Shown: in pieces, positions 43,687 through 63,762 of the stretch | How positions within the stretch are numbered: position 1 is the first letter of the stretch | How the letters are laid out: each line of letters begins with the position of its first letter | The notes under the pieces: generated by a model | The model's input: only the letters and a program-made list of their open reading frames with translations | Databases searched by the model: none | Told to the model about the DNA's origin: nothing | Virus record (IMG/VR): IMGVR_UViG_3300013383_000028 | Coordinates: 18,873 to 82,872 of that record | DNA from: a virus | Taxonomy: Duplodnaviria; Caudoviricetes | Reading direction: 5' to 3' (one strand) | DNA: 64,000 bases | Program-made: the position numbers and the translations under genes

Positions 43687-43727
43687 TTGACAAGTGACTA
43701 GTAACACATTATAATGTGATTAGTCAC
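43687..43727 (+). promoter_or_regulatory. module 1 promoter with paired palindromic operators
   Basis: TTGACA-N17-TATAAT; GTGACTAGTAAC (43694) and GTGATTAGTCAC (43716). Confidence 0.85.
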
Positions 43728-43745
43728 ACGAAGGAGGTGAACAGT

Positions 43746-43922
43746 GTGGCGGAAAAAGATAGATCTGAATATTTCCGTGCTCGTCGGCAATCAATGAAAC
43801 AGTATGCTTTTCTAATTGACAAGGAACGTGCTGAGAAGTTTGAACAGAAACTTAAAGAACGCAACATTGGAAAGACAGAATGGTTCAGGCAAAAGATTGA
43901 CGAGGAAATCGGAAATAAGTAA
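43746..43922 (+). CDS. ribbon-helix-helix regulator (module 1)
   Basis: 58 aa; KQYAFLIDKERAEKFEQKLKERNIGKTEWFRQKI RHH pattern; SD AAGGAGGTG. Confidence 0.65.
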   Translation: MAEKDRSEYFRARRQSMKQYAFLIDKERAEKFEQKLKERNIGKTEWFRQKIDEEIGNK

Positions 43923-44033
43923 AGAAAAGCCCCCTCTTTGTGCTTTAGTTTGAAGACCGAACACAAAGAAGGAGCCGACCAGAGGAAGCCCTCAAGGTAA
44001 ATTGATTATACCCTGTTGTGTTTCTTCTGTCAA
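43923..44033 (-). ncRNA. antisense sRNA of module 1 (~75 nt) with consensus promoter
   Basis: TTGACA (44033-28)-N17-TATAAT (44010-05); 14-bp stem GCTCCTTCTTTGTG/CACAAAGAGGGGGC + TTTT. Confidence 0.7.
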
Positions 44034-44069
44034 ACTGATTTTGTGGGCAATGCCCAGAAAGGAAACACA

Positions 44070-44840
44070 ATGAAGGATTTAATCACCATCAACAATAACG
44101 GCCAACCCGTTGCAAGCAGCCGGGATATCGCCGAACACTTCGAAAAAGAGCATCGGAATGTTCTTCGTGACATTGATGACCTCAGAAAAGATGTGCTCAA
44201 TTTTGAGCAGATGTTTTTCTCGGTCGAAATTCCAGATAGCTACGGCAGGCCACAGCGCGCGTACCTCATGAATCGAGACGGATTCTCGCTGCTGGTCATG
44301 GGCTTCACCGGGAAGTCCGCGCTCGAATGGAAACTCAAGTATATCGACGCATTCAACCGCATGGAAGCACAAATTAAAAGTCCACAGCCTATGACCACTG
44401 CCCAGATGTTTGCCATGCAAGCACAAGTCAATCTGGAACAGGAACAGCGGTTGGCGGCTCTGGAAAGTCGTGCGGAACGCAATGAACAGACCATGCAGAA
44501 AACGCTGGACATTTTCTCTGCACCTGCGGTCAGCCCCGACGATTGGACGGCGGCGATGAACCATCAGATCAATACTCTGGTGGAACGCTATGAGGCGAAT
44601 CACCAGAAATACCGCTCTGACCTCTACAAGGAGCTGGAATCTACTGCCGGTGTTGACCTCACGCTGCGGCAAACGCGGTTACGCAACCGCATGAAGAATG
44701 CTGGCGCGACAGTTTCGGAATGCAAGAACGTATCGAAGCTGCAGGTCGTTGCTCGTGACCGCAAGCTGCGTCCGATTTTTGAGAGCATCGTCCGCCGCCG
44801 CGCCGCGCTGTTATTATCAGCCAGCGAACAAACCATGTGA
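44070..44840 (+). CDS. Rha-family antirepressor/regulator (module 1)
   Basis: SSRDIAEHFEKEH..VLRDI, YLMNRDGFSLLVMGFTG..AL.WKLKYI..F. Confidence 0.85.
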   Translation: MKDLITINNNGQPVASSRDIAEHFEKEHRNVLRDIDDLRKDVLNFEQMFFSVEIPDSYGRPQRAYLMNRDGFSLLVMGFTGKSALEWKLKYIDAFNRMEAQIKSPQPMTTAQMFAMQAQVNLEQEQRLAALESRAERNEQTMQKTLDIFSAPAVSPDDWTAAMNHQINTLVERYEANHQKYRSDLYKELESTAGVDLTLRQTRLRNRMKNAGATVSECKNVSKLQVVARDRKLRPIFESIVRRRAALLLSASEQTM

Positions 44841-44854
44841 GGGAGGAATGAGCC

Positions 44855-45061
44855 ATGACAATCAGAGAGATCTATGAGCGCACACAGAATGTTGACGGCT
44901 GGATGATTGGCATCGACGGGTACGCATCGAAAGTTGACCTCGGCAATCCGGCCATTCTCGCCGGAATTGGAAAATTCCATGTGAAGACGATCTATCCGGA
45001 CGTCCACGACGGAAAGGTCGTTGTCGAACTGGACGTTGCTACGACTATCAATTCAGATTGA
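44855..45061 (+). CDS. conserved 68-aa protein, copy 1
   Basis: MTIREIYERTQNVDGW...ELDVATT; paralogues at 46039, 55064, 62326. Confidence 0.85.
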   Translation: MTIREIYERTQNVDGWMIGIDGYASKVDLGNPAILAGIGKFHVKTIYPDVHDGKVVVELDVATTINSD

Positions 45062-45074
45062 GTTCTGCAGACTT

Positions 45075-45102
45075 CCGGGAGGTTAATTCCTCCCGGTTTT
45101 TT
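45075..45102. terminator. terminator at convergence of + and - arms
   Basis: CCGGGAGG-TTAATT-CCTCCCGG-TTTTTT. Confidence 0.75.
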
Positions 45103-45112
45103 CTTTTCTATC

Positions 45113-45403
45113 TCAGAGATTGCTCAAAGTCCCGTCTCCGATGACAACCGCATTTGTCATGCTGCTGCCGAGAACGAAGACAGTGACCTGCGTGCCGACA
45201 GCTGCATTCTCCATGCTGGAGACGTATGGGAGCGCGATTTCTTTGTCGAATGCTCGCTGAATGGTGATCTTTCCGTTTGCGGCCACCCGTGTGACCTGTG
45301 CGCGGAAATACCAAATATTTGATCTGGTCAGTTCTTCGATTTTCGGTTTGAAGTAGTCCCAGAGCCTGTCTGCGAACCGCTTCATTTCCTGATTTTCATC
45401 CAT
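45113..45403 (-). CDS. putative baseplate spike-like OB-fold protein
   Basis: RAQVTRVAANGKITIQ...ALPYV...VGTQVTVFVLG pattern; not next to tail genes. Confidence 0.4.
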   Translation of the reverse strand: MDENQEMKRFADRLWDYFKPKIEELTRSNIWYFRAQVTRVAANGKITIQRAFDKEIALPYVSSMENAAVGTQVTVFVLGSSMTNAVVIGDGTLSNL

Positions 45404-45614
45404 GTGTATTACCCTCTGCTTCCGTTGGCGTACTGCTCAAAAGCACTGCGCCTCTCCGACAATGCGGCAACATTAACGCTGCTGCACCCACACTTTCGGC
45501 TTCGACTGTGAGTTCTTCGTTGTCTTTGTCATCGTACACAACAAGGAATGTGTAGCGGTTCTTGACAACATTCGTATGGAGTTTCCCGCCCATGCAATCA
45601 TTCCTTCCAGACAT
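45396..45614 (-). CDS. hypothetical protein
   Basis: Overlaps both neighbours in an operon-like run. Confidence 0.5.
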   Translation of the reverse strand: MSGRNDCMGGKLHTNVVKNRYTFLVVYDDKDNEELTVEAESVGAAALMLPHCRRGAVLLSSTPTEAEGNTHG

Positions 45615-45942
45615 TCGTGACTGTGAAGGTCATGCGCAGCCGGCAGTTGACATCAGCGAACGTCACCATATCGGCCAGCTTGTACATTTCGGAAATGCGG
45701 TTCCGGATGCTGTCATTGAGGATGTTGACCGGGAGAGGGAAGTCGACGTAGACGAAAGTGTTTCGGTCCCGTACCTCCAGATCATCCGCGTGCCACGGGG
45801 TACGCAGCGCCTTTGCAATCGCGGCTCCGTGCTCCTTAAGTTTGTTGTAGACCTCGACTTTTGCGGGAACCAGCTCGTTTCCGTGGAAAGCCTCATCCTT
45901 GGCCAGCATTGCAGCCACCATATCCTGAATATCCATTGCCAT
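45598..45942 (-). CDS. hypothetical protein
   Basis: GGAGG SD; downstream of GGGAC motif at 45996-46020. Confidence 0.65.
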   Translation of the reverse strand: MAMDIQDMVAAMLAKDEAFHGNELVPAKVEVYNKLKEHGAAIAKALRTPWHADDLEVRDRNTFVYVDFPLPVNILNDSIRNRISEMYKLADMVTFADVNCRLRMTFTVTNVWKE

Positions 45943-46038
45943 TGTATTTGCCTCCTATATTTTTTGATTTGCCCGTGAGGGCTTCTGTTTTTTCTTCTAC
46001 CGAAGAATCAGCTTTGTCCCACACGGGCGAGAAATTTT

Positions 46039-46254
46039 TTAATCGGTTACGATTTTCGTTGCGACTACCATTTCGATGACAGGTTTTCCGTCTTCCACAT
46101 CGACATCGAATGTGCTGACGTGAAAGTTCCCAACGCCGGCCATGATTGCGGGATTATCGAGGGCGATAGCATTAGCCAACCCATCTATGGCAATCATCCA
46201 ACGACCAACGTTCTGAGAGTGCTCATACAATTCCCTGATTGTCATTTGATGCAC
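46039..46254 (-). CDS. conserved 68-aa protein, copy 2 (most diverged)
   Basis: MTIRELYEHSQNVGRW...EMVVATKIVTD. Confidence 0.8.
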   Translation of the reverse strand: MHQMTIRELYEHSQNVGRWMIAIDGLANAIALDNPAIMAGVGNFHVSTFDVDVEDGKPVIEMVVATKIVTD

Positions 46255-46260
46255 CCTCCG

Positions 46261-47037
46261 TCACATTGCCTGCGGCCTGTCCATGATCGCGAGAATGCCG
46301 CGCTCTGTCAGGATTTCGTGAATCAGGAGACGGCCCTTCTGCGACCATTGCGTGAAGACACGGGTTCCTTTGCTCCCGTCGGAGTGGAGGAAGTGGAACG
46401 TCTTGGACTTGGTATACCCATTGCCCATGTGCTTCTTATAGAGAATCCATTGACCATTGACGTTGTGCTGGATTCCAGCTTCTTTTAGAATTTTGTTGAG
46501 CTGACGGGCACTCAGGTCGTAGTCAGCGGCGATCTGTGAGGTGGCCATGGTGGAGGTACTTTCGAGGATGGTATCTACGTACCGCTTGATTGGTTCGAAG
46601 TCCGCGATCATCTGCCGCTGCGCCTCGTTCTCCGCTTCTAATGCCAAACGCTTTTCTGCTTCATCAGCCAACGCACGAAGCGCGGAAGGGTAGTCCTGCG
46701 GAATTGCAAGCTGCTTTGCCCTCAGTGCTTCCTCCATTTTGTTGAAAGCCTCAATGTACTTGAGTTTCCATTCGAGCGCGGACTTCCCGGTGAAGCCCAT
46801 GACCAGCAGCGAGAATCCGTCGCGCGTCATGTAGTACATCGGATACGACTGACCGTTTTGCGGGTGGACATAGGTTGATTTGATGAACATGGGGGTGTCC
46901 CCAATTTTGGGGAGACCCCTCAAAAGTTCCTCAATGTCGCGCATAACGTGATCGTGTCGCTTGTCGAAGTGCTCCGCAATGTCTCTGCTGCTTGCGACGG
47001 GTTGGCCGTTATTGTTGATGGTGATTAAATCCTTCAT
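46261..47037 (-). CDS. Rha + KilAC/ANT antirepressor (module 2)
   Basis: Rha N terminus near-identical to 44070; C-term PQDYPSALRALAD...IAADYDLSARQLNKIL...WSQKGR. Confidence 0.85.
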   Translation of the reverse strand: MKDLITINNNGQPVASSRDIAEHFDKRHDHVMRDIEELLRGLPKIGDTPMFIKSTYVHPQNGQSYPMYYMTRDGFSLLVMGFTGKSALEWKLKYIEAFNKMEEALRAKQLAIPQDYPSALRALADEAEKRLALEAENEAQRQMIADFEPIKRYVDTILESTSTMATSQIAADYDLSARQLNKILKEAGIQHNVNGQWILYKKHMGNGYTKSKTFHFLHSDGSKGTRVFTQWSQKGRLLIHEILTERGILAIMDRPQAM

Positions 47038-47073
47038 TGTGTTTCCTTTCCGGACATTGCCCACAAAATCAGT

Positions 47074-47186
47074 TTGACAGAGGAAACACAACACGGTATA
47101 ATAGATTTACCGTGAGGTTTCCTCCGGGTCGGCTCCTTCTTTGTGACTTGTTTGCTAGACGTTGGCACAAAGAGGGGGCTTTTCCT
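47074..47186 (+). ncRNA. antisense sRNA of module 2 with consensus promoter
   Basis: TTGACA (47074)-N17-TATAAT (47097); same 14-bp stem as module 1, different loop, TTTT. Confidence 0.7.
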
Positions 47187-47367
47187 ATTTCTGTGTCAGC
47201 CGCGAGTGCAGGTCATTAACCATTTCTTCAAGCAAATCTGTTTTTGTCTTCCCAGATAGTTGTGCGCATTCTGAAAATTTCCTGACGGTTGATTCCGTTG
47301 CCCGAAGCGCAATCTGCTTGTTTTTCGGTTCTTCACCTACAATGGGGCGTCCGTATTTAGGCGACAT
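47185..47367 (-). CDS. ribbon-helix-helix regulator (module 2)
   Basis: GRP...KQIALRATESTVRKFSECAQLSGKTKTDLLEEMV RHH pattern. Confidence 0.7.
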   Translation of the reverse strand: MSPKYGRPIVGEEPKNKQIALRATESTVRKFSECAQLSGKTKTDLLEEMVNDLHSRLTQK

Positions 47368-47382
47368 CTTGATACCTCCTTT

Positions 47383-47423
47383 ATGCCTAGGCGTATTATA
47401 ATATATGTCTAGGCATATGTCAA
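47383..47423 (-). promoter_or_regulatory. module 2 promoter with paired palindromic operators
   Basis: TTGACA-N17-TATAAT; ATGCCTAGGCGT (47383) and ATGTCTAGGCAT (47405). Confidence 0.85.
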
Positions 47424-47476
47424 GTAGAACTTTCAATTTTTGTTCTACAGGGGAGTTACGGGTTGTCCCGCCCAGA

Positions 47477-47980
47477 TTAAAGAATTTTTATCGGACGGCA
47501 TTTCTGAATGTGCATCAAGCGGTCTGCTGCTTCTGCTATCCACATCACATCTTCTGATTCCAGAAGACTATTTAGTGCATCACGTGCCGCTGATTTCTTG
47601 AGGGAAATAAATATGTTATCATCTTCGGTTTCAGTTGAAATCCTTGCCAGATTCTCAGCAGCTTTTCCTGAAATGCCGAGTGTAGCAGCTGCAACTTGAA
47701 TGTTTTGCTCAACACTTTCAATATTTGTTACACCTAGCAGCCAGTCCGTAGACACGTTGAAGTATTCTGCGATTTTCGCGATATTCTCCCAACTGGGCTG
47801 TCCAAAACCGTCACAGTATGCAGATACAGATTGTCTTGCCTTCAGGCCGAGATAATCCGCTAATTCTTGCTGCGATACAGTTCTGTTGATTTTCCCTGCG
47901 TCCCCACGCATGAGCCTACGAAGACGACTGGGGAATGGCTTGTAATAGTTGTCTGTGTAATTGAGCTTTTTGCGCGGCAT
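47477..47980 (-). CDS. XRE-family HTH transcriptional regulator (repressor-like)
   Basis: SQQELADYLGL..RQSVSAYCDG..QPSWENIAKIAEYFNVSTDWLLG. Confidence 0.85.
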   Translation of the reverse strand: MPRKKLNYTDNYYKPFPSRLRRLMRGDAGKINRTVSQQELADYLGLKARQSVSAYCDGFGQPSWENIAKIAEYFNVSTDWLLGVTNIESVEQNIQVAAATLGISGKAAENLARISTETEDDNIFISLKKSAARDALNSLLESEDVMWIAEAADRLMHIQKCRPIKIL

Positions 47981-47981
47981 A

Positions 47982-49067
47982 TTATACACCCCTCATTTCC
48001 CGCACGTTCTGTGCCACGATCTTCACGGCCTCGTCGATAATTCTTGCATCTCGTTCGAGGTTCAGGCCATAATTGTGGCTCATGTCGCTCTCACAAGGGA
48101 CGAGTTTGTAATCGAAACTGAACCGAATAGCCGAACGTGCGCGTTCTTCAGAATACCCGGAAGCCAGAAGTACACGGGACGGCGCGTTATCACCGCTGGA
48201 ACACGCTGCACCGGATGAAACCATCAGTCCATCAGCGGCAAGCCGCAGGACGAGCGCGTGGTTTTCAATACCAGGGAAAGACATGTTTGCGATGTACGGA
48301 GACTGCTCTTCCTCGTGGCCTATGTATTTGCAACCATTGAGATGTGCATCCGGGATTTCATTCATGATACCGTCAATCAGCCGGTCATGCAACAGTCCTG
48401 TTGCCCCGGCGAAAGTATTCATGAGATTTGTGCGGAACTCCAACGCAGACGAAAATGCGGCAGCAAGGGGAGCGGACGGCGTCCCAAAATGGAAATGCTC
48501 TGTGATTGCCTCCGGAGTTCGTGCAATCAGGACGCCAACTCCAATCGGAGCGCCAAATTTATGCCCGCTTCCGCATATGAAGTCTATGCTGCTTTCACGG
48601 AAGTTGATTTTTTGCTTTCCCATCGCTGCGGTGCAGTCAGAGAACTTGACGTCATACTCAGTGAAAGCAGCATCTAGGTCGTAAATCGTTCCGGTTTCAT
48701 TATTGGTGAAAATCTGCACACGTCCATTCAAATCGGAGCTTTGCCATCCTCGTAGCATACATTCGGCAATGCTCGATACAGCCGAATGCTCGACACCACT
48801 AACACGGAACACTCGACATATATCGTCCATGGCTGTCAGCGCAATCCTGCACGCTTCTGTCGCAGATGAAACGAAGAAAACCTGATCTGGCTCGCAGTTC
48901 AAGCACTGCGCTACGGTCTCACGGGACGCTTCGATTGCCTTTCTGGCGCTCTGCCCAAATGAATGTACGGAGTTTGGGTTTCCCCATACTGATGTTGAAA
49001 CTGCATTGAATGCGGTTCTTGCGCATTGAAGCAGGGGAGAAGTAGCTGCGTGGTCAAGGTAGATCAT
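47982..49067 (-). CDS. iscS: cysteine desulfurase (IscS/NifS family)
   Basis: IYLDHAATS, GNPNSVH, NNETG, SGHKFGAP (PLP Lys), SSGAACSSG (catalytic Cys). Confidence 0.9.
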   Translation of the reverse strand: MIYLDHAATSPLLQCARTAFNAVSTSVWGNPNSVHSFGQSARKAIEASRETVAQCLNCEPDQVFFVSSATEACRIALTAMDDICRVFRVSGVEHSAVSSIAECMLRGWQSSDLNGRVQIFTNNETGTIYDLDAAFTEYDVKFSDCTAAMGKQKINFRESSIDFICGSGHKFGAPIGVGVLIARTPEAITEHFHFGTPSAPLAAAFSSALEFRTNLMNTFAGATGLLHDRLIDGIMNEIPDAHLNGCKYIGHEEEQSPYIANMSFPGIENHALVLRLAADGLMVSSGAACSSGDNAPSRVLLASGYSEERARSAIRFSFDYKLVPCESDMSHNYGLNLERDARIIDEAVKIVAQNVREMRGV

Positions 49068-49609
49068 ACGGCCACCTCAACAGGCTTCGGCCAACGCGGA
49101 AGCGCGGCGGCACAGATCTTTTCGTAGATTTCCCTTTGCGCGAGCAGCGTATCGCGTTCCTTCTGCATTGCGCGGTATGCGTCTTCTAAGCCAAATGGCT
49201 CGTTGATCGGAATGCAGGCCTTTTCCAGTGCTTGCTCTTGCGAGACTGCTGCACTGCCCGCGGGGGGGGCAGAGATACCCAAGGAGACGAGCAACGCTTC
49301 GTCGACCATCTTAGTTTCTGCATCCGTTAAAGTGCAGTAGTAGTTCTCCAGACGTGCCTTATCGACTGTATAAACACACTCACACAGCGCAGTGGACTGC
49401 TTCCCCATAGTGTTGATGACGATGTGCGTCGGCATGGGCTTTTTCTCTGCGGTCGTAAGGTACACGATCTCAACTGTTTCGGAATATGTATTGTTTCGGT
49501 CGTTGCTGACGATGATGGCCGGACGGTTCTTTCTGATCTCCGAACCGACAGAATTAAGATCTTGACGAATCCAGAAGATATCTCCCCGATGAATCTTGTA
49601 ATCAAGCAT
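49064..49609 (-). CDS. MazF/PemK-family endoribonuclease (orphan)
   Basis: RGDIFW...GSEIRKNRPAIIVSND..N, PTH, ALCE...TVDK.RL. Confidence 0.85.
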   Translation of the reverse strand: MLDYKIHRGDIFWIRQDLNSVGSEIRKNRPAIIVSNDRNNTYSETVEIVYLTTAEKKPMPTHIVINTMGKQSTALCECVYTVDKARLENYYCTLTDAETKMVDEALLVSLGISAPPAGSAAVSQEQALEKACIPINEPFGLEDAYRAMQKERDTLLAQREIYEKICAAALPRWPKPVEVAV

Positions 49610-49669
49610 GAGTGTGCTTCCTTTCTAGTTGTATTTTTATATGTAGAGGGGCGAAACCGCCCCATGATC

Positions 49670-49945
49670 TCACTTGGCGACAGCGTTTTTCAGAACGCTG
49701 CTTGCCGAGAATTTGACTGCGAATCTTGCAGGAACATCGACCGTTCCACCCGTGGCCGGGTTTCTGGCGGTTCGTGCTTTCTGATACTTTGCAGCAAACT
49801 TTCCGAATCCTGCGATGGTGACATTTTCATGCGCAACGAGTGCTTCTTCAATCGCGGCAAAAACTGCATCGACAGCTTCAAGGCTGGCGGTCTTCGGCAT
49901 ATTAGTCTTGCTGGCAACTGCCTGAACGAGTTCTTCTTTGTTCAT
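49670..49945 (-). CDS. hup: HU-family DNA-binding protein
   Basis: MNKEELVQAVA...GFGKF...ARTARNPATG..V.VPAR..VKF.A...LK.AV. Confidence 0.95.
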   Translation of the reverse strand: MNKEELVQAVASKTNMPKTASLEAVDAVFAAIEEALVAHENVTIAGFGKFAAKYQKARTARNPATGGTVDVPARFAVKFSASSVLKNAVAK

Positions 49946-49972
49946 GTGTACTCCTCCTTTCTTAAGAATCAA

Positions 49973-50047
49973 TGGTGGGCCGTGCAGGTGTCGAGCCTGC
50001 AACCTGCCCGTTATGAGCGGGCTGCTCTGCCGTTGAGCTAACGGCCC
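49973..50047 (-). tRNA. tRNA with CAT anticodon, probably Ile2
   Basis: GGGCCGT/ACGGCCC-ACCA, loop CT-CAT-AA, Ile2-like body; T loop CTCGACA atypical. Confidence 0.8.
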
Positions 50048-50406
50048 GTCTATGACCGGCTTCACGTACCGGCCTTGAGGTCTTGCGCGCAGACAACAAC
50101 GGCAAATCAGGTGATTGCGCACCGGCGCTTAACAGTCGGAAGTTTCTAAAGCGTTCCCAAAGATGCTTCCCCAGCTTGGAAGGATTTCAGTTCGCCCCAA
50201 GCGTCGAACAAACATTTTGCAGCGTAGCTCCTATCCCGCTTTCTGGCCCATATAGCTGCATTGTGCCTCGTTCTCCTTGGACGCTGCGGGTACAGCGTCT
50301 TTAGCCGGGGCCGCTACGATTCACGAATCCGCTATTGCGTGCGTGAATGGATAGCCGTATTTTCCCCATGTTAAATATAGTCGCGCGGAGAACCCCAACG
50401 GGCGGC

Positions 50407-50483
50407 TGGCAGGGGTAGCAGGATTTGAACCTGCGCATATGGGAGTCAAAGGCCCATGCCTTAGACCGCTTGGCGATACCCCT
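50407..50483 (-). tRNA. tRNA-Gln(TTG)
   Basis: AGGGGTA/TACCCCT-GCCA, loop CT-TTG-AC, T arm GCAGG-TTCAAAT-CCTGC. Confidence 0.9.
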
Positions 50484-50623
50484 TTGTTGCCGGTCTTTCC
50501 CGGCCGTCAAAGCGCTTACATTCCCGAAGAGCTAATCCTTGGTATCGGCTGTATCAACCCGACGACACCGCTGCCAGATGCGGAGGCTTCATTCCACCGG
50601 GGGAAGTCATCCGATGGCGGGCA

Positions 50624-50690
50624 TGGGCGGCTTGGCAGAATCGAACTGCCTCGGGTCAGTTGCTCGTCGCTGCCCTTTACCAAATGCCGC
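50624..50690 (-). ncRNA. tRNA-like RNA / pseudo-tRNA
   Basis: GCGGC/GCCGC-CCA end and perfect T arm GGCAG-TTCGATT-CTGCC; D arm reduced, no canonical anticodon loop. Confidence 0.45.
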
Positions 50691-50852
50691 GTGTTGCCAC
50701 ACTGACGCAGTGGCCTCGGCTGTCTCTCCAGCTGTTACCGCTTCGTGTCGGCTGCTTGCGGTTAGCCCCCGTGGGTACACAATTCCGTCTGCCTGCTGTG
50801 ACCTATCTATGGCAGACCCGTTCAGGCTTGTACTTCGCCCGGTCACTGGACG

Positions 50853-50928
50853 TGGTGGAACCGACCAGACTTGAACTGGTGGCCTCCTGATTCCAAATCA
50901 GGCGCGCTTCCAACTGCGCTACGGCTCC
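50853..50928 (-). tRNA. tRNA-Pro(TGG)
   Basis: CCTGA-TT-TGG-AA-TCAGG; GGAGCCG/CGGTTCC-ACCA. Confidence 0.9.
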
Positions 50929-51116
50929 ATATTGGCCGTCTTCCCGCTTAGATTTTCACACGCTACCGGCAACTACGGTCCGAAGATCCGCAGCCCCTAT
51001 TCCGTCAGGTCAAACCGGTCTTGACGCATCAAGACAAGCGCAGTTTTCAGCGGGCATTTTCGTTCTCTGTGTGGCTCGACGGTCGCGCACACATCATCCG
51101 GGAGCGACCCGGCATC

Positions 51117-51203
51117 TGGCGGCAGATGGAGGTGTCGAACCCCACGGCTTTCACCGCGCACTGTTTTCAAGACAGGCTCCGAGGCCGCTCGAAATCATCT
51201 GCC
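51117..51203 (-). tRNA. tRNA-Ser(TGA)
   Basis: GGCAGAT/ATCTGCC-GCCA, loop CT-TGA-AA, long variable arm. Confidence 0.85.
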
Positions 51204-51210
51204 GTATTGG

Positions 51211-51284
51211 TTGGAGGTTTTGCACCATGCACGTTCAGGAGTCGAACCTGACCGTTTGGGGACTCGAACCCCGCTGCACCTCCA
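51211..51284 (-). ncRNA. tRNA-sized RNA with two T-arm hairpins
   Basis: TGGAGGT/ACCTCCA stem enclosing GGGG-TTCGAGT-CCCC and CAGG-TTCGACT-CCTG. Confidence 0.5.
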
Positions 51285-51501
51285 AGGATGACCGTCACCC
51301 TATATTGCACGGAATAGGCTTTTCTCACCGCGCTATGAACCTGTAACCTCACCGTTCTTTGTCTGGTTTCTTGTTGACCAGCAACAGCGCCATATCGCTT
51401 CAGATTCTAATGGCTTGCGCGGAATAGTGTCATCACCGTGCTATGAGCCTTCGCACAATCTCGCTCTTTGGGCGGCACGATGCCCCGCCATGATACCCAT
51501 G

Positions 51502-51575
51502 TGGACCGGTATACGAGGGTCGAACTCGCGCTCTCAGTTTGGAGGACTGATGTGCTACCACTACACCAATACCGG
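51502..51575 (-). tRNA. tRNA-Gly(TCC), atypical C33 and C1-G72
   Basis: TCAGT-CC-TCC-AA-ACTGA; CCGGTAT/ATACCGG-TCCA with U73. Confidence 0.8.
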
Positions 51576-52071: not shown

Positions 52072-53160
52072 TTACGCAATCTCCGGCTGCGGTATTTGCT
52101 TCAACCGGAGCTTTCCGAAAAAACTGTCTCCGCTGACCTCCAAACGTTCAATGTTCCTCTGTGCCTGCCGTTCTTTCTCTTCCTGCACGGTTTTCGTCAT
52201 CCTGCGGCGCTTCCGGCTGGTGAGTTTACCGGAATATATCTGCGTTGTCGATACCGACTCATGTCCCAACTTTGACTGAAGCTCTTCAATGCTCATGCCG
52301 CCATTCAGGTCAAGCCGCGCACCGACGTGCCGCAGATCGTGGGTGCGGATGTTGTCTACACCAGTTACAGATTTCACGTGCCGACAAACAACATTTGAAA
52401 GCCACTGCCGCGTCCCTGCGTGCCACTCCTCGCCCTTGTTGTCTCCCTGAAAGTCTCTGGTTGCTTCTGTCCCAAACAGCGGCTCGTCGCTGCCTGCGGT
52501 CTCAGGGCGTGCGCCACTGTTCAGATAAAGTCGCATGGCTGTCTGCGCAAGAAGGGGGAAGTCTACCGGTCTGTACTTGTCACCTTTTCCGTGCTCGACG
52601 GACAGTTCCGAGTTCTCCCAATCCAGATCATTCGGCGTGAGCGCCAGAAGCTCGCTGTTCCGGATTTCAGTGGTCAGGAGTAAAATTACAATGGCGTAAT
52701 TCCTCGGCCACAGATCCGGACGCCTGTATCCTTTCGGAGGATTGTTCCGCCAGAGCAGCAGGACTTGCTCGTCCGTCAGAAATTGGTCGTAAGGCCTTTT
52801 TTGCTGCTTGCGAGTATCCGGAACAAGAATCGGCGCGACCGGATTCGTTTCGTACCAGCGGGCATCCCCGAGCTGTGGCGATGACGCGAAGCGGTACAAA
52901 GCGGAAAGCACAGTTAAGTATTGCCTGATGGTAGACGGTTTTTTACCGTCTCGGCGCATCTGGTCGCGCCATGCCTGAATATCGATGAAGCTTTCTTCGC
53001 GCCTGTCCCATCGTTGGTTATCCAGCATGAAACCGGAGAACAGTTTGAATATCTGCTCCTCGTTCCTGATTGTTGATTCAGCCCTCCCAATGGCACGAAG
53101 ATTGTTTTCATACGCAACCATCGCAGACTGAAATTTTTCACAGGCATTTGGGAAGCTCAT
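52072..53160 (-). CDS. tyrosine recombinase/integrase
   Basis: EIRNSEL (R), GKGDKYR (K), HDLRH (H-x-x-R), LGHESVSTTQIY (H, Y). Confidence 0.92.
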   Translation of the reverse strand: MSFPNACEKFQSAMVAYENNLRAIGRAESTIRNEEQIFKLFSGFMLDNQRWDRREESFIDIQAWRDQMRRDGKKPSTIRQYLTVLSALYRFASSPQLGDARWYETNPVAPILVPDTRKQQKRPYDQFLTDEQVLLLWRNNPPKGYRRPDLWPRNYAIVILLLTTEIRNSELLALTPNDLDWENSELSVEHGKGDKYRPVDFPLLAQTAMRLYLNSGARPETAGSDEPLFGTEATRDFQGDNKGEEWHAGTRQWLSNVVCRHVKSVTGVDNIRTHDLRHVGARLDLNGGMSIEELQSKLGHESVSTTQIYSGKLTSRKRRRMTKTVQEEKERQAQRNIERLEVSGDSFFGKLRLKQIPQPEIA

Positions 53161-53183: not shown

Positions 53184-53219
53184 ATTATAGCAAATGCTCC
53201 AAGTCGAATATGTCGCACC
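53184..53219 (-). promoter_or_regulatory. 24-bp tandem 0A-box-like element + -10, copy 1 (recombinase)
   Basis: GGTGCGACATATTCGACTTGGAGC-N6-TATAAT on minus strand. Confidence 0.7.
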
Positions 53220-54225: not shown

Positions 54226-54576
54226 TCAGATGAAGCTTACGGCTCCGCTCGTAATGAGCAGCGTGGCGGCTGTAGCGATGGAAGACACGATGACAACGAT
54301 GGACGCGATACAGCGGCGTTTACGTTCCACTTGCCGCTTGTAGGCCTGCTGCGCGTGCTTGGCACGGACTACGTCTGCGTGGTGGCAGACAAGATGCGAG
54401 AAAACATCTTCCGGTGTGAGTTCCGGAACATACATGAGAGCCTTTGACTTTTCCATTTGAATGATCTCCTTCCTTTTGATACGGGCATTTTTGTCCTTGG
54501 CAAACTTGCGTTTGCTCTTTGATTTTTGATCTACTGGATTTCTGCGCTTTTCCCGCTGATCGCGGGATTTTTTCAT
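54226..54576 (-). CDS. hypothetical membrane-anchored protein (start may be 54456)
   Basis: C-terminal TM helix; SD before 54456. Confidence 0.55.
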   Translation of the reverse strand: MKKSRDQREKRRNPVDQKSKSKRKFAKDKNARIKRKEIIQMEKSKALMYVPELTPEDVFSHLVCHHADVVRAKHAQQAYKRQVERKRRCIASIVVIVSSIATAATLLITSGAVSFI

Positions 54577-54932
54577 GCTGACAACCGGCGCTCGATTTCA
54601 CTTGCGCATTGGAAGACAAACATGACGTTTGTGGGTTTACCTCTTTCCGGATCGATTGAGTTTCCGAAGATCTCATACTTGTGAGTCGTATTGAGACTAT
54701 CGAACGCTACCTCAATGGCGTGGCGCATGCTGCGCTCAACACTGTTGACCGTTTTTCCATATTTCTTTGCGATTTCATAGTACACTCCACCTGGCTTTGT
54801 CGCGATGGTGCCTTCATAGTCTCCGTCGTAAGCACACTTGACAGCTTCCGTTAAATACCGGTATCCGTCGAGGTGTGCCGGAACGCCAAGTTCTTTGAAC
54901 AGATCATAGATTGCGCATTCGGTTTTTGTCAT
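54573..54932 (-). CDS. Spo0A C-terminal effector-domain protein, no receiver domain
   Basis: LGVPAHLDGYRYL..A, Y.EIAKKY..T..SVERSMRHAIEVAF, RGKPTN..F match Spo0A_C. Confidence 0.9.
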   Translation of the reverse strand: MTKTECAIYDLFKELGVPAHLDGYRYLTEAVKCAYDGDYEGTIATKPGGVYYEIAKKYGKTVNSVERSMRHAIEVAFDSLNTTHKYEIFGNSIDPERGKPTNVMFVFQCASEIERRLSA

Positions 54933-55004: not shown

Positions 55005-55050
55005 AATATAACACCCGCTCCAAGTCGAATATGTCGCACCTTATTCGACA
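55005..55050 (-). promoter_or_regulatory. 24-bp tandem 0A-box-like element + -10, copy 2 (spo0A-C), plus a perfect TGTCGAA box
   Basis: Motif 55017-55040, N6, TATATT; TGTCGAA on minus strand at 55050-55044. Confidence 0.7.
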
Positions 55051-55270: not shown

Positions 55271-55283
55271 AATTTTCTCCTCC

Positions 55284-56057: not shown

Positions 56058-56105
56058 CGTGTAATCCTTTCCGGAAGATATAAAAATCCCCCTATCAAAT
56101 TTGGA

Positions 56106-56239
56106 TTGACAGGGGAATATAATCACGGTATAATTAAAAAACCGTAAAGTATCCCCCATGTCATGCGGGTATTTTCGGGCAGCTCCCTTCTTTGTGCCGG
56201 TCGCCAAACTAGTCACAGGGAAGGGGGTATTTTATTTAT
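56106..56239 (+). ncRNA. antisense sRNA of module 3 with consensus promoter
   Basis: TTGACA (56106)-N17-TATAAT (56129); 15-bp stem GCTCCCTTCTTTGTG/CACAGGGAAGGGGGT + ATTTTATTT. Confidence 0.65.
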
Positions 56240-56333
56240 CGGATTCAAGATCTTTTTTAATCAGCTTCAAGATGTACTCTTTTAGGGTGATTTCCTCTTG
56301 CGCAAACCTCCTTAAAAAACACTTTTTTCTCAT
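56232..56333 (-). pseudogene. truncated RHH gene remnant (module 3)
   Basis: 33 codons ending AQEEITLKEYILKLIKKDLESDK, like the second RHH helix; at the RHH position of the other modules. Confidence 0.45.
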
Positions 56334-56464: not shown

Positions 56465-56493
56465 TTGACATTATGGGAACGTCCCGTTAAAAT
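56465..56493 (+). promoter_or_regulatory. sigmaA promoter of type I toxin 2
   Basis: TTGACA-N17-TAAAAT. Confidence 0.7.
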
Positions 56494-56576
56494 AAAAAAG
56501 CCCACCTTCCGGTGGGCGGGGCGCTGCATGGAGGTGGCAGACGGTCGGCACTTCCCTTAAAAAGGAGGTGTTTCGC

Positions 56577-56663
56577 ATGGCTACATGGACTGAGATTTTC
56601 TCGTTCTCCACCGTACTCATCGCATTTGCGGGTTTGATCGTTCAGATCTGCAAAAAGAAATGA
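56577..56663 (+). CDS. type I toxin-like 28-aa peptide, copy 2
   Basis: MATWTEIFSFSTVLIAFAGLIVQICKKK; paralogue of 42364; SD AGGAGGTG. Confidence 0.75.
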   Translation: MATWTEIFSFSTVLIAFAGLIVQICKKK

Positions 56664-56768
56664 CCGCCATCGGCATAAGGCTAGGTCAAATCCCCTAGGC
56701 ATCCTTGGCTGACCGCTTGTGGCAGCGCCCCTTTTTCTTTATTATACCGAAAAAATGAAAAGTGTCAA
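56650..56768 (-). ncRNA. putative RNA antitoxin 2 (including its promoter)
   Basis: TTGACA (56768-63)-N16-TATAAT (56746-41), convergent on toxin 3' end. Confidence 0.6.
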
Positions 56769-59180: not shown

Positions 59181-59302
59181 TTTGAATGCCTCCGTATTCT
59201 GTAGTGTTTTTGTTTTCTTGGTTTTGTATCTACCTGAAATCTTGGTTTGTCCCGTAAATTGAAAAATTCCAAGAGAAAAGCAGGGGCATGATTCGTCCCT
59301 GC

Positions 59303-59713: not shown

Positions 59714-59807
59714 TGTTTATCCTTTCCGCCCGACTCGGGGCTGTCTGTTTTGCCCTTACACTTATTCTTCTACAGCAGGAAGCGGAAATGTCCCGCTTCC
59801 TACGAAA

Positions 59808-60140: not shown

Positions 60141-60185
60141 GGTAGAACCTTTCTCCCCGTATGCCCGATAGGTCAGGCTTGGATG

Positions 60186-60848: not shown

Positions 60849-60936
60849 TGTATGTGACCTCCTGTTTTCTTGGTTTCCTCTACACCTTTATTGCTACCGG
60901 CGCAACTGCATTTGTCCCGCTGCGCCGGTACTTTTT

Positions 60937-61203
60937 TCAGTCGATTTCCTGCTCGGAAATCTCCCAACTGTAGATCGTGGCTTGCTCCAAGCAGTTTCGC
61001 CCGCACCGTCCGAGGTGAATGCTCATGGGTTCGTCCCAGGTCATATCCTCGTCCCAGAAATCTTCGTCGAACTCTTTGCGGATAGCGTCTGCTCCGACCT
61101 CGATCTGCGCACGGGCTTTCTCTACCGTTGAGAGAACGCCCAGGACTTCCACGCCCTCGTTGTCGGGCGTGTCCCAATGATGAACCACTACGTAAACGGT
61201 CAT
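60937..61203 (-). CDS. hypothetical acidic protein
   Basis: GGAGG SD before ATG 61203. Confidence 0.6.
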   Translation of the reverse strand: MTVYVVVHHWDTPDNEGVEVLGVLSTVEKARAQIEVGADAIRKEFDEDFWDEDMTWDEPMSIHLGRCGRNCLEQATIYSWEISEQEID

Positions 61204-61217
61204 GATTTTGCCCTCCC

Positions 61218-61376
61218 TCAAATGTAATACCAGACGATGAACTTGTTTTCGCTGCCGTCGGCGGACTGCCACGGCGTTATGCGTGCCTTGCGACGCTGTT
61301 TCTTGCGCGCTGCCACGAATGCGGCGGCTTGCTGTTCTGTGCTGAAAAACTCAAAGGTTTTGCGGTACTGGTTCAT
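61218..61376 (-). CDS. small hypothetical protein (52 aa)
   Basis: Hand-translated MNQYRKTFEFFSTEQQAAAF...FIVWYYI; SD GGAGG. Confidence 0.6.
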   Translation of the reverse strand: MNQYRKTFEFFSTEQQAAAFVAARKKQRRKARITPWQSADGSENKFIVWYYI

Positions 61377-61388
61377 GGTGGTTCCTCC

Positions 61389-61742
61389 CTATGCGATCTG
61401 CTCGGCAGGTTCTGCAAATTCCTGCGAAATTTTGAAAAGCATCATTTTTTTGAGCGCCTGTTTGCTCATGGTTTTCTCGTCGTAGCTGTTCGGCCTGTCC
61501 CAGACGAGGACGCGAAAAACACCGTTGTCGATGTCTGCGATCTCTCGGTATATGCAGACAGTCAGGCTTCCGGTGAAACAGATCTTTAGGGCGTTCAACG
61601 TGCTTGCATCGCCCCGGAAGATCTTCATTCCTGCATCCAGCAGGTGCGCGGCGGTCTCTTCGGAAAATGCAAGGGCGTGCTGTTCGACGTTCTCAAAACA
61701 GCCAAAAATGTTTTTCGCGTCGTAGTTTGCGATAAATTCCAT
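61389..61742 (-). CDS. hypothetical protein
   Basis: AAGGAGG SD. Confidence 0.6.
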   Translation of the reverse strand: MEFIANYDAKNIFGCFENVEQHALAFSEETAAHLLDAGMKIFRGDASTLNALKICFTGSLTVCIYREIADIDNGVFRVLVWDRPNSYDEKTMSKQALKKMMLFKISQEFAEPAEQIA

Positions 61743-61755
61743 GGTTCGTCCCTCC

Positions 61756-62103
61756 TTAGTCTATGATGTCTGAATCCAGCAAGATTTCGGAGTAGGCGAT
61801 CGTCGCACTGTTGCAAAGGTTGACGCGCTCCGACAGCTTCTGAAGCATGTCAATCGGCCCGGTAGCGCGGACAACATATCCGCGGCTAGGTGCGAAATCT
61901 CCGCCCTTGACAACGACCGAAAAGCGGGACATATAGCTTTCTTCTTCGTCGATTTCCTCAATGTCATCCATGCAGGCACCGCATTGCGCACAGAACGGCG
62001 TGATGTCTCTAACTTCTGCCCCGCATTCAGAACAGTGGGGTTCTCCCTGCGCGTTGTATACCCATTCGCCGAACTTCGGCCATGCTGCTTTCTTGCTTTC
62101 CAT
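61756..62103 (-). CDS. zinc-ribbon protein
   Basis: HCSECG...FCAQCGACMD. Confidence 0.7.
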   Translation of the reverse strand: MESKKAAWPKFGEWVYNAQGEPHCSECGAEVRDITPFCAQCGACMDDIEEIDEEESYMSRFSVVVKGGDFAPSRGYVVRATGPIDMLQKLSERVNLCNSATIAYSEILLDSDIID

Positions 62104-62117
62104 TTTACCGTCTCCTC

Positions 62118-62231
62118 TCACAGAATGAACTCGATCAACGAATCCGCACACAGAATGACAATGAACATTGCGGCGATTGCAGCGCCGGTCAGGAACATGT
62201 GGATTCCCGAAGTTTTGTAATAGTTTTTCAT
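62118..62231 (-). CDS. small membrane peptide (37 aa)
   Basis: MKNYYKTSGIHMFLTGAAIAAMFIVILCADSLIEFIL. Confidence 0.5.
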   Translation of the reverse strand: MKNYYKTSGIHMFLTGAAIAAMFIVILCADSLIEFIL

Positions 62232-62325
62232 ATGTAACTTCCCCCGTTCGGTAGTTTATCTTATATTTTTTGTTCTACCGAAGGGCGGGATTTGTCCCGC
62301 CCCTTATCGGAAAAACCGAACTTTT

Positions 62326-62532
62326 TTAATCGGTTTGGATAGTCGTAGCAACGTCCAGTTCCACAACGACCTTCCCATCATCCACATCCGGGTAGATCGT
62401 CTTTACATGATAATTCCCGATACCGGCGAGAATGGCCGGATTTCCAAGATCGACAGCTGACGCATAACCGTCAATACCGAGAATCCAGCTGTCAACGTTC
62501 TGGGTGTGTTCATAAATCTCTCTGACTGTCAT
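62326..62532 (-). CDS. conserved 68-aa protein, copy 4
   Basis: MTVREIYEHTQNVDSW...ELDVATTIQTD. Confidence 0.85.
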   Translation of the reverse strand: MTVREIYEHTQNVDSWILGIDGYASAVDLGNPAILAGIGNYHVKTIYPDVDDGKVVVELDVATTIQTD

Positions 62533-62547
62533 GGTTAAATCCTCCTG

Positions 62548-63294
62548 TTAATTTTCCAGAAGCGCCTTTTTCGGCGCGTGCTTGTTGATGAAGTATTTCT
62601 GACCGCGCGGGGTAACGCGTACAACCTTATCCAGCACTGTCCCAGCCTTTCCAACTCGCGGCGTTTCGCGCACGAAGAACAGACCGAGTTCCATGGCTTT
62701 CTGCGTCGGCATGTTGTAGTCCGTGCCTTTGTTCTTAATCAGATACCCTTCCTGACGCAGCTGTTCATACAGTCGGTTGCCGCCGATTTCATATCCGTTT
62801 TGAGAAAGAAGCTTCGCCATCTCGCGGACAAGGATGTTTGAATCTGCGCCGGTGACAGCTTCTGCGAAGAACACGGCAGGCGCGTCGGCTTCGATTTTCG
62901 CCTGCAACTGTTTCACCTGATTGTTTGCAATCTGCAAAGCCCGCGCCATGACCTTCTCCGGACTGTTCCACGCTTTTTCGAGTTCTACGAAGTACCGGCG
63001 GGCGATTTTGCCCTTTTCGTTGCGCTGCAACATACAGATTTCTTTTGCCATGTCAATGGTGATTGCCGCGTCATCGACGAAACGTTTGACCATTCGATTT
63101 CCTTCGTTTTGAACTCGCTCAATTTTGAGAAGGTTGAAATCGCGCCCCAACTCGAACCCGTATTCGCACATACGAGGGAACCAGTCGGCGTACTTTGTTT
63201 CAACTTCTAGGAATGCGTGCAAGTCACGCGCGGACAATGTGATTCGTTCAGGGTTTTCAGTGTTGATAGGGATGATTTTCGCCAATTCATTCAT
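62548..63294 (-). CDS. AntA/AntB + KilAC antirepressor (module 4)
   Basis: SARDLHAFLEV...YADW..RM..YGF..G.DF, ITIDMAKEICM; APAVFFAEAV...LVREMAKLL, MPTQKAMELGLF, VTPRGQ.YF. Confidence 0.88.
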   Translation of the reverse strand: MNELAKIIPINTENPERITLSARDLHAFLEVETKYADWFPRMCEYGFELGRDFNLLKIERVQNEGNRMVKRFVDDAAITIDMAKEICMLQRNEKGKIARRYFVELEKAWNSPEKVMARALQIANNQVKQLQAKIEADAPAVFFAEAVTGADSNILVREMAKLLSQNGYEIGGNRLYEQLRQEGYLIKNKGTDYNMPTQKAMELGLFFVRETPRVGKAGTVLDKVVRVTPRGQKYFINKHAPKKALLEN

Positions 63295-63340
63295 AAAATT
63301 GCTCCTTTGATCGTGTCGGTGGGGATTCATCCCTATTGCC

Positions 63341-63376
63341 AGCATAGCAAACGCTCCAAGTCGAATATGTCGCACC
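63341..63376 (-). promoter_or_regulatory. 24-bp tandem 0A-box-like element + -10, copy 3 (antirepressor 4)
   Basis: Motif 63353-63376, N6, TATGCT preceded by TG. Confidence 0.7.
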
Positions 63377-63415
63377 TATTTCTGGAAAAGGGTATAAAAA
63401 TCCCCGTGAATGTGG

Positions 63416-63530
63416 TTGACGATTCACGGGAAGTGTAGTAGAATATTTACACTTCGACCGTGAGGTCGTGGGGATTCCTCGTGCTGTCTGTCCGCCAAGA
63501 AAGAGCAGCGCGGGGAATTTTTATTTTTTG
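63416..63530 (+). ncRNA. antisense sRNA of module 4 with promoter
   Basis: TTGACG-N17-TAGAAT; CGACC-GTGA-GGTCG hairpin; 13-bp terminator + U tract overlapping the RHH stop. Confidence 0.65.
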
Positions 63531-63706
63531 TTGTCCAATTCAGCCCGAACAAGAGAAATTCCTTTGTTCACAACGTCAGTCCTAGATATTTGCAACTCTT
63601 TCGCGCAGCTATCGAGCGTTTCGAGTTCCTCTGTGCTCATGCGAAGCTGCAAACTTTTGTCTCGCTTGCTTGGCCCCTTAATTGGACGGCCTTTTGTTGG
63701 CAACAT
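63521..63706 (-). CDS. ribbon-helix-helix (CopG-like) regulator (module 4)
   Basis: GRP...RDKSLQLRMSTEELETLDSCAKELQISRTDVVNKGI. Confidence 0.8.
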   Translation of the reverse strand: MLPTKGRPIKGPSKRDKSLQLRMSTEELETLDSCAKELQISRTDVVNKGISLVRAELDNKK

Positions 63707-63733
63707 TTCATCACTCCTTTTTGCCATGGCTTA

Positions 63734-63762
63734 ATTGTACATTATGCAGTGGCAAAAGTCAA
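63734..63762 (-). promoter_or_regulatory. module 4 promoter
   Basis: TTGACT-N17-TACAAT with imperfect TGCCA/TGGCA palindromes. Confidence 0.7.

Follow-up and report, generated by a model that had tools for sequence, protein, structure and literature searches.

The last 64 kb of the IMG/VR virus record IMGVR_UViG_3300013383_000028 (82,872 bp; Caudoviricetes), hereafter the window, contain four modules, M1 to M4, in which the same kinds of genes follow one another. In each module a spacer of 147-226 nt separates a small gene from a gene of a phage antirepressor family (Ant1 to Ant4), and 9-15 nt further on lies a 68-codon gene that we call S (n = 4; Table 1). An earlier note on this DNA had reported this fourfold gene order and likened it to the arc-sar-ant switch of phage P22; the order was borne out at the same positions and goes far beyond chance. 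The Ant genes matched Rha, AntA and ANT domains at E-values of 1e-21 to 1e-31. Specifically, the Rha family (Phage_pRha, PF09669, curated Pfam cut-off 29.9) was matched by Ant1, Ant2 and Ant3 at 101, 110 and 76 bits, respectively, the ANT/KilAC family (PF03374, cut-off 25.3) by Ant2 and Ant4 at 88 and 87 bits, and AntA (PF08346, cut-off 27) by Ant4 at 76 bits. Relatives of Ant4 occur in 1146 phage records, and many among the matches listed are annotated as antirepressors. For Ant1 to Ant4, "antirepressor" is a family label drawn from sequence resemblance to Rha, AntA and KilAC, and an activity of this kind is putative.

The promoters of these modules are unusually strong matches to the consensus. 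The perfect sequence TTGACA-N17-TATAAT occurs five times in the 64 kb, always inside a module (twice in the sense direction, in M1 and M2, and three times in the antisense direction, in M1, M2 and M3), and with at most one mismatch it was observed seven times against 0.21 expected, a count reached by none of 100 shuffles. These module promoters are arranged as convergent pairs; in M4 both members match at 10 of 12 positions. Three of the module starts given by the earlier note, 43687, 47423 and 63762, coincide with -35 hexamers of sense promoters, but the fourth, 56333, is the -10 end of a weak match that is the only candidate sense promoter of M3. Inverted repeats of 13-17 nt surround the -10 boxes of M1, M2 and M4 and are mutually unrelated in sequence. 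Their layout looks like that expected of autoregulated ribbon-helix-helix (RHH) operators, at which binding by the small proteins is putative.

In all four modules an antisense RNA is predicted to arise from the spacer promoter, convergent with the sense promoter. These transcripts would begin about 7 nt past the antisense -10 box and read back toward the small gene for 79-97 nt, with the final U run overlapping the stop codon of that gene. All four RNAs share a short 5′ stem-loop and a long, G+C-rich terminator hairpin followed by a U run, and their folds have z-scores of -3.8 to -5.0. To describe this element we built a covariance model, R1, from the four module copies and two copies from other phages. 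R1 found exactly four matches in the whole 82.9-kb record, and its matches outside the training set were always upstream of Ant-type genes (L096, L099, L006/L010, L009, L013/L014, L109, L112 and L114, in our numbering of phage loci). Among 11 distinct sequences, including those of other phages, 93.4% of the hairpin cells were paired and 16 of 20 pairs showed compensatory changes, counts that are inflated by an alignment fitted to the model; none of 500 shuffles reached this level, and slid controls gave 43-53%. Many of these pairs are G-U in the antisense orientation and A-C mismatches on the sense strand, and we therefore argue that the selected hairpin sits on the antisense transcript. The loop motif is conserved across otherwise unrelated stems and reads YTTGGCGR on the sense strand. 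It resembles the U-turn (YUNR) loops through which plasmid antisense RNAs and their targets recognise each other, such as that of the pIP501 target. An Rfam scan of positions 42000-64000 returned tRNAs only and no family at the four antisense RNA sites. R1 had no match in 151 sampled genomes from the class of the one bacterium found to carry S, a search in which strict filters left few candidates to be scored and which is thus uninformative.

Counted upstream from the ant ATG, the distance to the predicted RNA start is 72 nt in M1 and M2, 84 nt in M3 and 157 nt in M4, and transcription would proceed away from the ATG. A sar-like action in which the RNA covers the ant ribosome site is therefore not what we find: unlike in the P22 immunity region immI, the RNA stops at least 72 nt before each ant start and would act via a switch in the leader. 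This leader has three parts, namely an arm A inside the RNA target, a middle arm B and a downstream arm C. In M3, M4 and six leaders of other phages (L016, L048, L102, L009, L010 and L014) a hairpin and U run immediately precede the ant ribosome site; the M4 attenuator design recurs with compensatory changes in the first three of these phages. When folds were stopped at the terminator loop, the 5′ arm of the terminator paired with upstream sequence inside the RNA footprint in eight of eight terminator-type leaders. Masking the RNA target raised the equilibrium probability of the terminator in the same eight, from 0.05-0.92 to 0.81-0.97 (for example, from 0.72 to 0.97 in M3 and from 0.55 to 0.95 in M4). 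In addition, the antisense -35 box always lies in the loop of the sense terminator, as in M4, or of a hairpin that sequesters the Shine-Dalgarno sequence (SD). Since the stems are wholly different in sequence between lineages, it is the design and not the sequence that is conserved. On these folding models, an antiterminator/terminator switch blocked by the antisense RNA is predicted for M3, M4 and the six leaders from other phages. The leaders of M1 and M2 have no U run and hence no terminator of the pT181/pIP501 type; their third element is the ant SD and ATG. In M2 the accessibility of the SD fell from 0.49 to 0.10 with the target masked, and in its orthologue in the relative L096 from 0.66 to 0.12.

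The small proteins of M2 and M4 form one family with a GRP motif (phrog_876). Their matches among natural proteins in PDB and NCBIfam, all below threshold, are RHH proteins (ParG, DUF1778, CopG, BrnA, RelB, NikR and aCcr1), and in L009, L010 and L014 the gene at the corresponding place scores above the Pfam cut-offs for RHH_5 and RHH_1, the L010 type also above that for NikA-like. The M1 protein aligned with the M2/M4 family in hhalign weakly but in register. The small gene is also not called at the M3 slot of relatives. An RHH gene in every module, as the earlier note had it, is thus weakly supported for M2 and M4, but the fold in M1 is not established and M3 keeps a remnant of about 22 codons without a usable start; the open reading frames (ORFs) with GTG or TTG starts that had been listed overrun the true starts.

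Table 1. Features of modules M1 to M4 and of other genes in the window. Positions are those of the window; fractions of 12 are promoter matches to TTGACA-N17-TATAAT; asRNA, antisense RNA.
Feature	Position	Strand	Details
M1 sense promoter (12/12)	43687-43727	+	13-nt inverted repeat 43694-43706 / 43715-43727 around -10, putative operator
M1 small gene, 58 aa	43746-43922	+	GTG start after AAGGAGG; phrog_3896 (function unknown); RHH-like by sequence pattern only
asRNA1, predicted	43917-44033	-	promoter 44033-44005 (12/12); start ~43998, end ~43920; 73.6 bits, z -5.0
M1 leader hairpin	44011-44072	+	anti-SD segment pairs ant SD + ATG; asRNA -35 in its loop
Ant1	44070-44840	+	Rha N-terminal domain and C-terminal domain common with Ant3; PF09669 4.6e-29, phrog_373
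S1	44855-45061	+	own GGAGG ribosome site; terminator after
M2 sense promoter (12/12)	47382-47423	-	15-nt inverted repeat 47382-47396 / 47403-47417
M2 small repressor, 60 aa	47367-47185	-	GRP motif; phrog_876 "transcriptional repressor"; RHH-like
asRNA2, predicted	47074-47191	+	promoter 47074-47102 (12/12); start ~47109, end ~47187; 61.7 bits, z -4.0
Ant2	47037-46261	-	Rha + KilAC (ANT)
S2	46245-46039	-	most divergent copy, 56-60% identical to the others
M3 sense promoter match, weak (9/12)	56359-56332	-	
M3 remnant of small repressor gene	56372-56232	-	last-helix-like stretch after AGGAGG, without start codon
asRNA3, predicted	56106-56240	+	promoter 56106-56134 (12/12); start ~56141, end ~56236; 71.4 bits, z -3.8
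M3 attenuator	56077-56169	-	arm A, then 13-bp terminator hairpin 56118-56086 + U run, just 5′ of Ant3 ribosome site
Ant3	56057-55284	-	Rha N-terminal domain and C-terminal domain common with Ant1
S3	55270-55064	-	followed by 0A-box-like repeat and Spo0A_C-like gene
M4 sense promoter TTGACT-17-TACAAT (10/12)	63719-63762	-	17-nt inverted repeat 63719-63735 / 63741-63757
M4 small repressor, 68 aa	63727-63521	-	GRP motif; phrog_876; RHH-like
asRNA4, predicted	63416-63532	+	promoter 63416-63444 (TTGACG-17-TAGAAT); start ~63451, end ~63528; 82.3 bits, z -4.9
M4 attenuator	63390-63473	-	antiterminator helix (arm A in asRNA target) alternating with terminator hairpin 63430-63403 + U run
Ant4	63294-62548	-	AntA + KilAC (ANT)
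S4	62532-62326	-	91% identical to S3
XRE-family helix-turn-helix protein with BetR-like region	47477-47989	-	block adjoining M2
Class-V aminotransferase-like gene	47982-49067	-	block adjoining M2
MazF/PemK-like gene	49064-49609	-	block adjoining M2
HU-like DNA-binding protein	49670-50122	-	block adjoining M2
tRNA genes Met-CAT, Gln-TTG, Pro-TGG, Gly-TCC (n = 4)	49973-51575	-	
Tyrosine integrase	52072-53160		
Spo0A_C-like gene	54573-54932		downstream of S3
28-codon hydrophobic ORF, KKK tail	56577-56663	+	after AGGAGG; promoter TTGACA-17-TAAAAT 56465-56493
Convergent perfect promoter facing 28-codon ORF	56768-56741	-	
Terminator in type I-like locus	56517-56500	-	

The S proteins are 56-91% identical to one another. 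Their genes differ mainly at third codon positions (S3 and S4 by 2, 4 and 29 differences by codon position), which marks S as a genuine protein-coding gene, subject to purifying selection, whose copies are not recent duplicates. The S tree is poorly resolved, and each copy groups with its orthologues from relatives. S has no family in Pfam, PHROGs or NCBIfam (an ORFan), and an exhaustive profile search of 1.84 billion representatives recovered only 14 proteins at E <= 0.001; an Atlas features search gave scores of at most 0.89, to unnamed clusters only. The AlphaFold2 (AF2) model was confident in two of five runs (best predicted local distance difference test, pLDDT, 90.8) and has the order helix-strand-strand-helix-strand-strand. 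Against PDB, Foldseek found nothing at E <= 0.001 and VIA-align gave a best Z of 4.4, and in BFVD only uncharacterised small phage proteins were similar (template modelling score, TM, up to ~0.8). The extra conserved gene of the earlier note is kept in all four modules, but it is not obligately tied to Ant: among 11 loci of other phages, S comes after a different kind of gene in five (for instance, a sigma-like gene or one of 131 aa), and in several it precedes a Spo0A_C-like gene. S as a binding partner of Ant was set aside, because its sequence tracks the genomic slot and not the Ant domain type and because it stands apart from Ant in those five loci. Whatever role it may have, S seems a specific protein worth pursuing, since purifying selection has kept all four copies even as the Ant genes beside them were exchanged.

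Such swaps are apparent in the close relatives of this phage, which are high-coverage ENA contigs of ~104-106 kb. These keep the convergent M1/M2 pair, the M3 slot and the M4 slot, but the cargo may differ. For example, L096 has a Bro-N+ANT gene in the M2 slot and a Bro-N gene in the M1 slot, and L102 has AntA+ANT in the M3 slot, while S and much of the leader are unchanged. Conservation of the quartet elsewhere, which the earlier note had held up as a check, is thus seen in close relatives, with M1/M2 and M3/M4 on separate contigs, but other IMG/VR phages mostly have one S. More distant IMG/VR phages carry one S copy each, with one phage having three, and Ant-type genes number two or three in several other phages. 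Ant multiplicity is common in the group, and four cassettes each with S are particular to this lineage.

The computed features of the sequence, the way in which they are conserved and covary, and the direction in which masking shifts the leader thermodynamically point to each module being a self-limiting expression cassette that combines a self-repressor with a countertranscript-controlled leader switch. In silico support for the architecture is good, the mechanism is plausible, and we regard the proposal as reasonably probable. According to this proposal, a very strong sigma-70 promoter would be shut by the small DNA-binding protein that it encodes, acting at the module-specific inverted repeat around the -10 box; this repressor would be of RHH type in M2 and M4, probably also in M1, and would have been lost in M3. 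An equally strong convergent promoter in the spacer would make a countertranscript of ~80-97 nt, with its 5′ stem-loop and long terminator stem-loop, which would pair with the nascent leader, the first contact probably being made via the YUUGGCGR hairpin loop. With arm A occupied by this pairing, arm B would pair with arm C, which would form an intrinsic terminator 5′ of ant in M3 and M4 and a hairpin burying the SD and start codon in M2; the same hairpin is present in M1, where switching is not demonstrated. The Ant-family protein, together with S and downstream genes in M3 and M4, would be made only as a burst before repressor and RNA build up, either at phage genome entry or once the inhibitors have been diluted or titrated away. 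With rising copy number each genome would then yield less, as in the copy control of pIP501, pT181 and pMV158.

Several points weigh against this proposal. The starts and ends of the antisense RNAs are themselves predictions from sequence, and the inflation of the pairing counts applies here as well. The M1 small protein had no match in PDB or Pfam, and its AF2 monomer, although all-helical, had a pLDDT of 70.6 (low confidence), which does not confirm an RHH fold. Likewise, M3 has neither a repressor gene nor a good sense promoter. The M1 leader showed no change on masking, with a mean unpaired probability of 0.13 at the SD in both states, such that the switch is not demonstrated in M1. In most leaders the terminator is already favoured at equilibrium, and regulation would therefore have to be kinetic. 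Finally, N-terminal domains of the Rha, Bro-N and KilA-N type are regarded as DNA-binding, and the Ant proteins may thus be transcription factors and not antirepressors.

This last point leads to a reading in which the regulation is the same but the cargo has another role: Rha, AntA and KilAC proteins would be DNA-binding early regulators, and the cassettes establishment switches at the head of long operons of small early genes, which would be expressed briefly after entry. Indeed, M4 heads ~6 kb of co-oriented genes, including those for DUF3560 and DUF6927 proteins, and all genes from 63762 down to 52072 are co-oriented, with no strong terminator found after S4. In addition, a fifth Rha-domain gene of this phage, described below, is an ordinary early gene beside the CI/Cro-like pair and has no cassette, and plasmid p576 offers a documented case of establishment genes expressed transiently under RHH control (PMC6294495). 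We nevertheless consider this reading unlikely, given the antirepressor annotation of many of the listed Ant4 relatives and the naming of the KilAC/ANT domain after phage P1 Ant in the Pfam family description. M1, moreover, ends at a strong intrinsic terminator directly after S1 (45075-45096), and the M1 cassette at least therefore controls only Ant and S.

A different objection is that the convergent promoters might act mainly by collision or promoter occlusion, the short RNAs having no trans-acting or structure-switching role. Such transcriptional interference would leave unexplained the conserved, covarying terminator stem with its conserved loop motif, the placement of the antisense -35 box always in the loop of the sense hairpin, whether terminator or anti-SD, and the position of arm A always within the RNA footprint. 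It is thus quite improbable in our view, even though the pairs are of near-equal, maximal strength and 290-320 bp apart and convergent transcription effects are documented in pIP501 (PMC4981023). The modules might also be read as addiction modules, with an Ant/KilA-family protein toxic to the host and the RHH protein and antisense RNA as labile or dosage-dependent antidotes. Repressor-Bro/Ant pairs have been listed as mobile two-gene modules resembling toxin-antitoxin systems, with some Ant-domain proteins being toxic, yet the same study favours a regulatory role for Ant proteins, as these lack domains of toxin type (Makarova et al. 2009, PMC2701414). In favour of addiction, the RHH fold is typical of antitoxins, a homologue of the M1 small protein bears the name "antitoxin" in one source, type I systems have a cis-antisense RNA that ends at its own terminator, and the cassettes act as mobile units whose cargo is swapped between relatives. 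The cargo, however, consists of ~250 residues with DNA-binding-type N-terminal domains, and no toxin-family domain was found in it in Pfam, PHROGs or NCBIfam. Four alike modules would also be redundant in a phage with an integrase, a MazF-like gene and a separate type I-like locus, and we judge addiction to be very improbable.

If the modules are self-limiting cassettes, a further and more speculative step, which we hold to be doubtful on balance, is that these plasmid-style, dosage-sensing circuits fire a burst at genome entry. The four different antirepressor-family proteins, each delivered along with S as a common small effector, would then constitute an anti-immunity arsenal against the repressor of a resident prophage or of the phage itself, and would also serve as a multiplicity-of-infection sensor for the lysis-lysogeny decision, because output per genome falls as copy number rises. 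If this were true, the conserved flanks (leader and S) would let recombination swap Ant alleles between phages. The suggestions of the earlier note, that the circuits integrate several induction signals or inactivate repressors of foreign prophages, are likewise speculative. The trans-acting antirepressors of the Salmonella Gifsy and Fels prophages provide a precedent for cross-prophage action (PMC3121763), but those proteins are small, controlled by LexA or a phage repressor, and of an unrelated sequence family.

Among known systems, the cassettes are closest to P22 immI in content and to the plasmids pIP501, pT181 and pMV158 in mechanism. The mnt/arc/sar/ant genes of immI are the "ant moron" of P22-like phages (PMC2629481). 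The cassettes resemble it in having a strong promoter ahead of a small gene (in the cassettes a putative self-repressor, RHH-like in M2 and M4) and of a gene named for antirepressors, a predicted short antisense RNA read from a spacer promoter that faces the sense one, and portable, moron-like behaviour. Details of the sar RNA are reportedly given in Liao et al. 1987 and Schaefer & McClure 1997. The P22 analogy of the earlier note is thus apt as to architecture, but it fails for the action of the RNA over the ribosome site, and the small repressor gene is intact in three modules only. The four parallel immI-like circuits that it envisaged do have, in silico, different operators and Ant-family genes, and an antisense RNA and a conserved extra gene each. 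Further differences from immI are that a Mnt-like second repressor was not noticed here, nor a divergent small gene upstream of the sense promoters, although no dedicated comparison with P22 sequences was made; that the cargo is of the Rha/AntA/KilAC families by Pfam; and that there are four copies per genome, each with a 68-aa gene, in a phage whose host would be a Gram-positive gut anaerobe.

In the copG-rnaII-repB region of plasmid pMV158/pLS1 the operon opens with an RHH repressor gene, the spacer between this and the regulated gene encodes an antisense RNA, and control is exerted on translation. Such a layout matches M2 best, although our cargo is not Rep and our RNA does not overlap translation signals. 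CopR, the repressor of pIP501, is a helix-turn-helix protein, in contrast to the putative RHH-type repressor here. Nonetheless, both the CopR and RNAIII attenuation system of pIP501 (PMC4981023) and the countertranscript-driven attenuation of the pT181 replication gene (PMC5703833) resemble the cassettes in that an antisense RNA from a convergent leader promoter is combined with a small repressor at the sense promoter, and RNA pairing leads, in the cassettes by prediction, to a Rho-independent terminator just upstream of the regulated gene. In the cassettes, by contrast, that gene carries Rha/AntA/KilAC domains and is not a replication initiator setting copy number, and the output of M1 and M2 would be translational instead of a terminator. 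Similarly, the self-regulated RHH protein Reg576 of the Bacillus plasmid p576 shuts strong promoters to give transient expression after DNA entry (PMC6294495). It is like our case in having several promoters with different operator layouts in one element, but p576 uses one repressor for four promoters, with neither antisense RNA nor attenuator, whereas here each cassette would have its own repressor (lost in M3) and operator.

Full-text literature searching yielded no description of a recurrent cassette before antirepressor-family genes of Firmicutes/Clostridia phages, and the cassette is apparently undescribed for these phages. Control by a self-repressor together with a countertranscript is well established in the replication of Gram-positive plasmids and in P22 immI; the setting is apparently new. 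If the RNAs are real, they would represent a new, easily modelled family of phage small RNAs with a clear cis target and a concrete mechanism for the timing or dosing of antirepressor expression by temperate gut phages. They would also provide four orthogonal repressor/operator/RNA/attenuator units in one genome, of use for prophage cross-talk studies and as regulatory parts.

The record itself is classed as linear and 87% complete (CheckV), and the phage carrying the four cassettes is a temperate phage of roughly 105 kb with a spore-forming gut Firmicute (gut Clostridia) as host. These assignments are based on the integrase, a CI/Cro-like pair, the Spo0A_C-like gene, four tRNA genes and the occurrence of S in "Firmicutes bacterium CAG:124", the only carrier among 185,579 species genomes. 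A divergent CI-like/Cro-like pair lies outside the window (CI-like repressor at about 5938-6260 of contig G000:C1), and this region, not the four cassettes, is the main lysogeny switch of the phage. The fifth Rha-domain gene (6718-7410 of the same contig; 2219-2911 in L104) follows the pair as an ordinary early gene and has no small repressor, antisense RNA or S gene. A megablast of the region against GenBank phages gave a single 108-bp match. The block adjoining M2 (47477-50122) is kept in relatives, although a separate XRE gene is not called there (L096). Beside the tRNA genes, a tRNA-Sec-like Rfam match at 51121-51203 is below threshold (44 bits against a cut-off of 47).

M1 and M2 are also related to each other by sequence. 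The M2 leader and the first 76 nt of Ant2 are 89% identical to M1 in inverted orientation, and two inverted repeats of the same identity, 43962-44146 versus 46961-47145 (185 nt) and 44261-44365 versus 46733-46837 (105 nt), span the leaders and the Rha-coding 5′ parts, 2.4-2.8 kb apart. They point to recent exchange between the two cassettes and are a possible inversion substrate. Concerted evolution or an invertible segment was considered and rejected, as the relative L096 is without the repeats and its two Bro-N genes are 29% identical.

The leader of Ant4 contains an additional element downstream of the attenuator. This 24-nt sequence occurs three times on the minus strand (53195-53219, 55016-55040 and 63352-63376; two copies identical, the third with one mismatch), each time with a -10-like box after it, and its other sites are upstream of the integrase and of the Spo0A_C-like gene. 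A LexA (Cheo) box was rejected as an explanation, there being no GAAC-N4-GTTC pattern by eye. In the Ant4 leader the element is possibly a second, independently regulated promoter, through which Ant4 and S4 would also be expressed independently of the RHH protein and antisense RNA of M4. Similarly, the leaders of L009 (~1400-1550) and L010 (~1510-1670) run ~150 nt past the attenuator, and a stretch common to both holds TTGGAG...TATACT; like the additional element of the M4 leader, it may be a second promoter before ant.

Upstream of M3 lies a hot spot for insertions. Its occupants are an Ltp-type lipoprotein gene in L101 (16235-17005), an IS605-family element in L102 (16483-17995) and, in the present phage, a type I toxin-like locus. 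The L102 element consists of a Y1 transposase and a TnpB-like gene and lies just after a retained copy of asRNA3, with the complete AntA+ANT cassette next. The type I toxin-antitoxin-like locus lies directly upstream of M3 at 56465-56768 of the window, and its 28-codon ORF, which has no Pfam match, is faced by a perfect convergent promoter.

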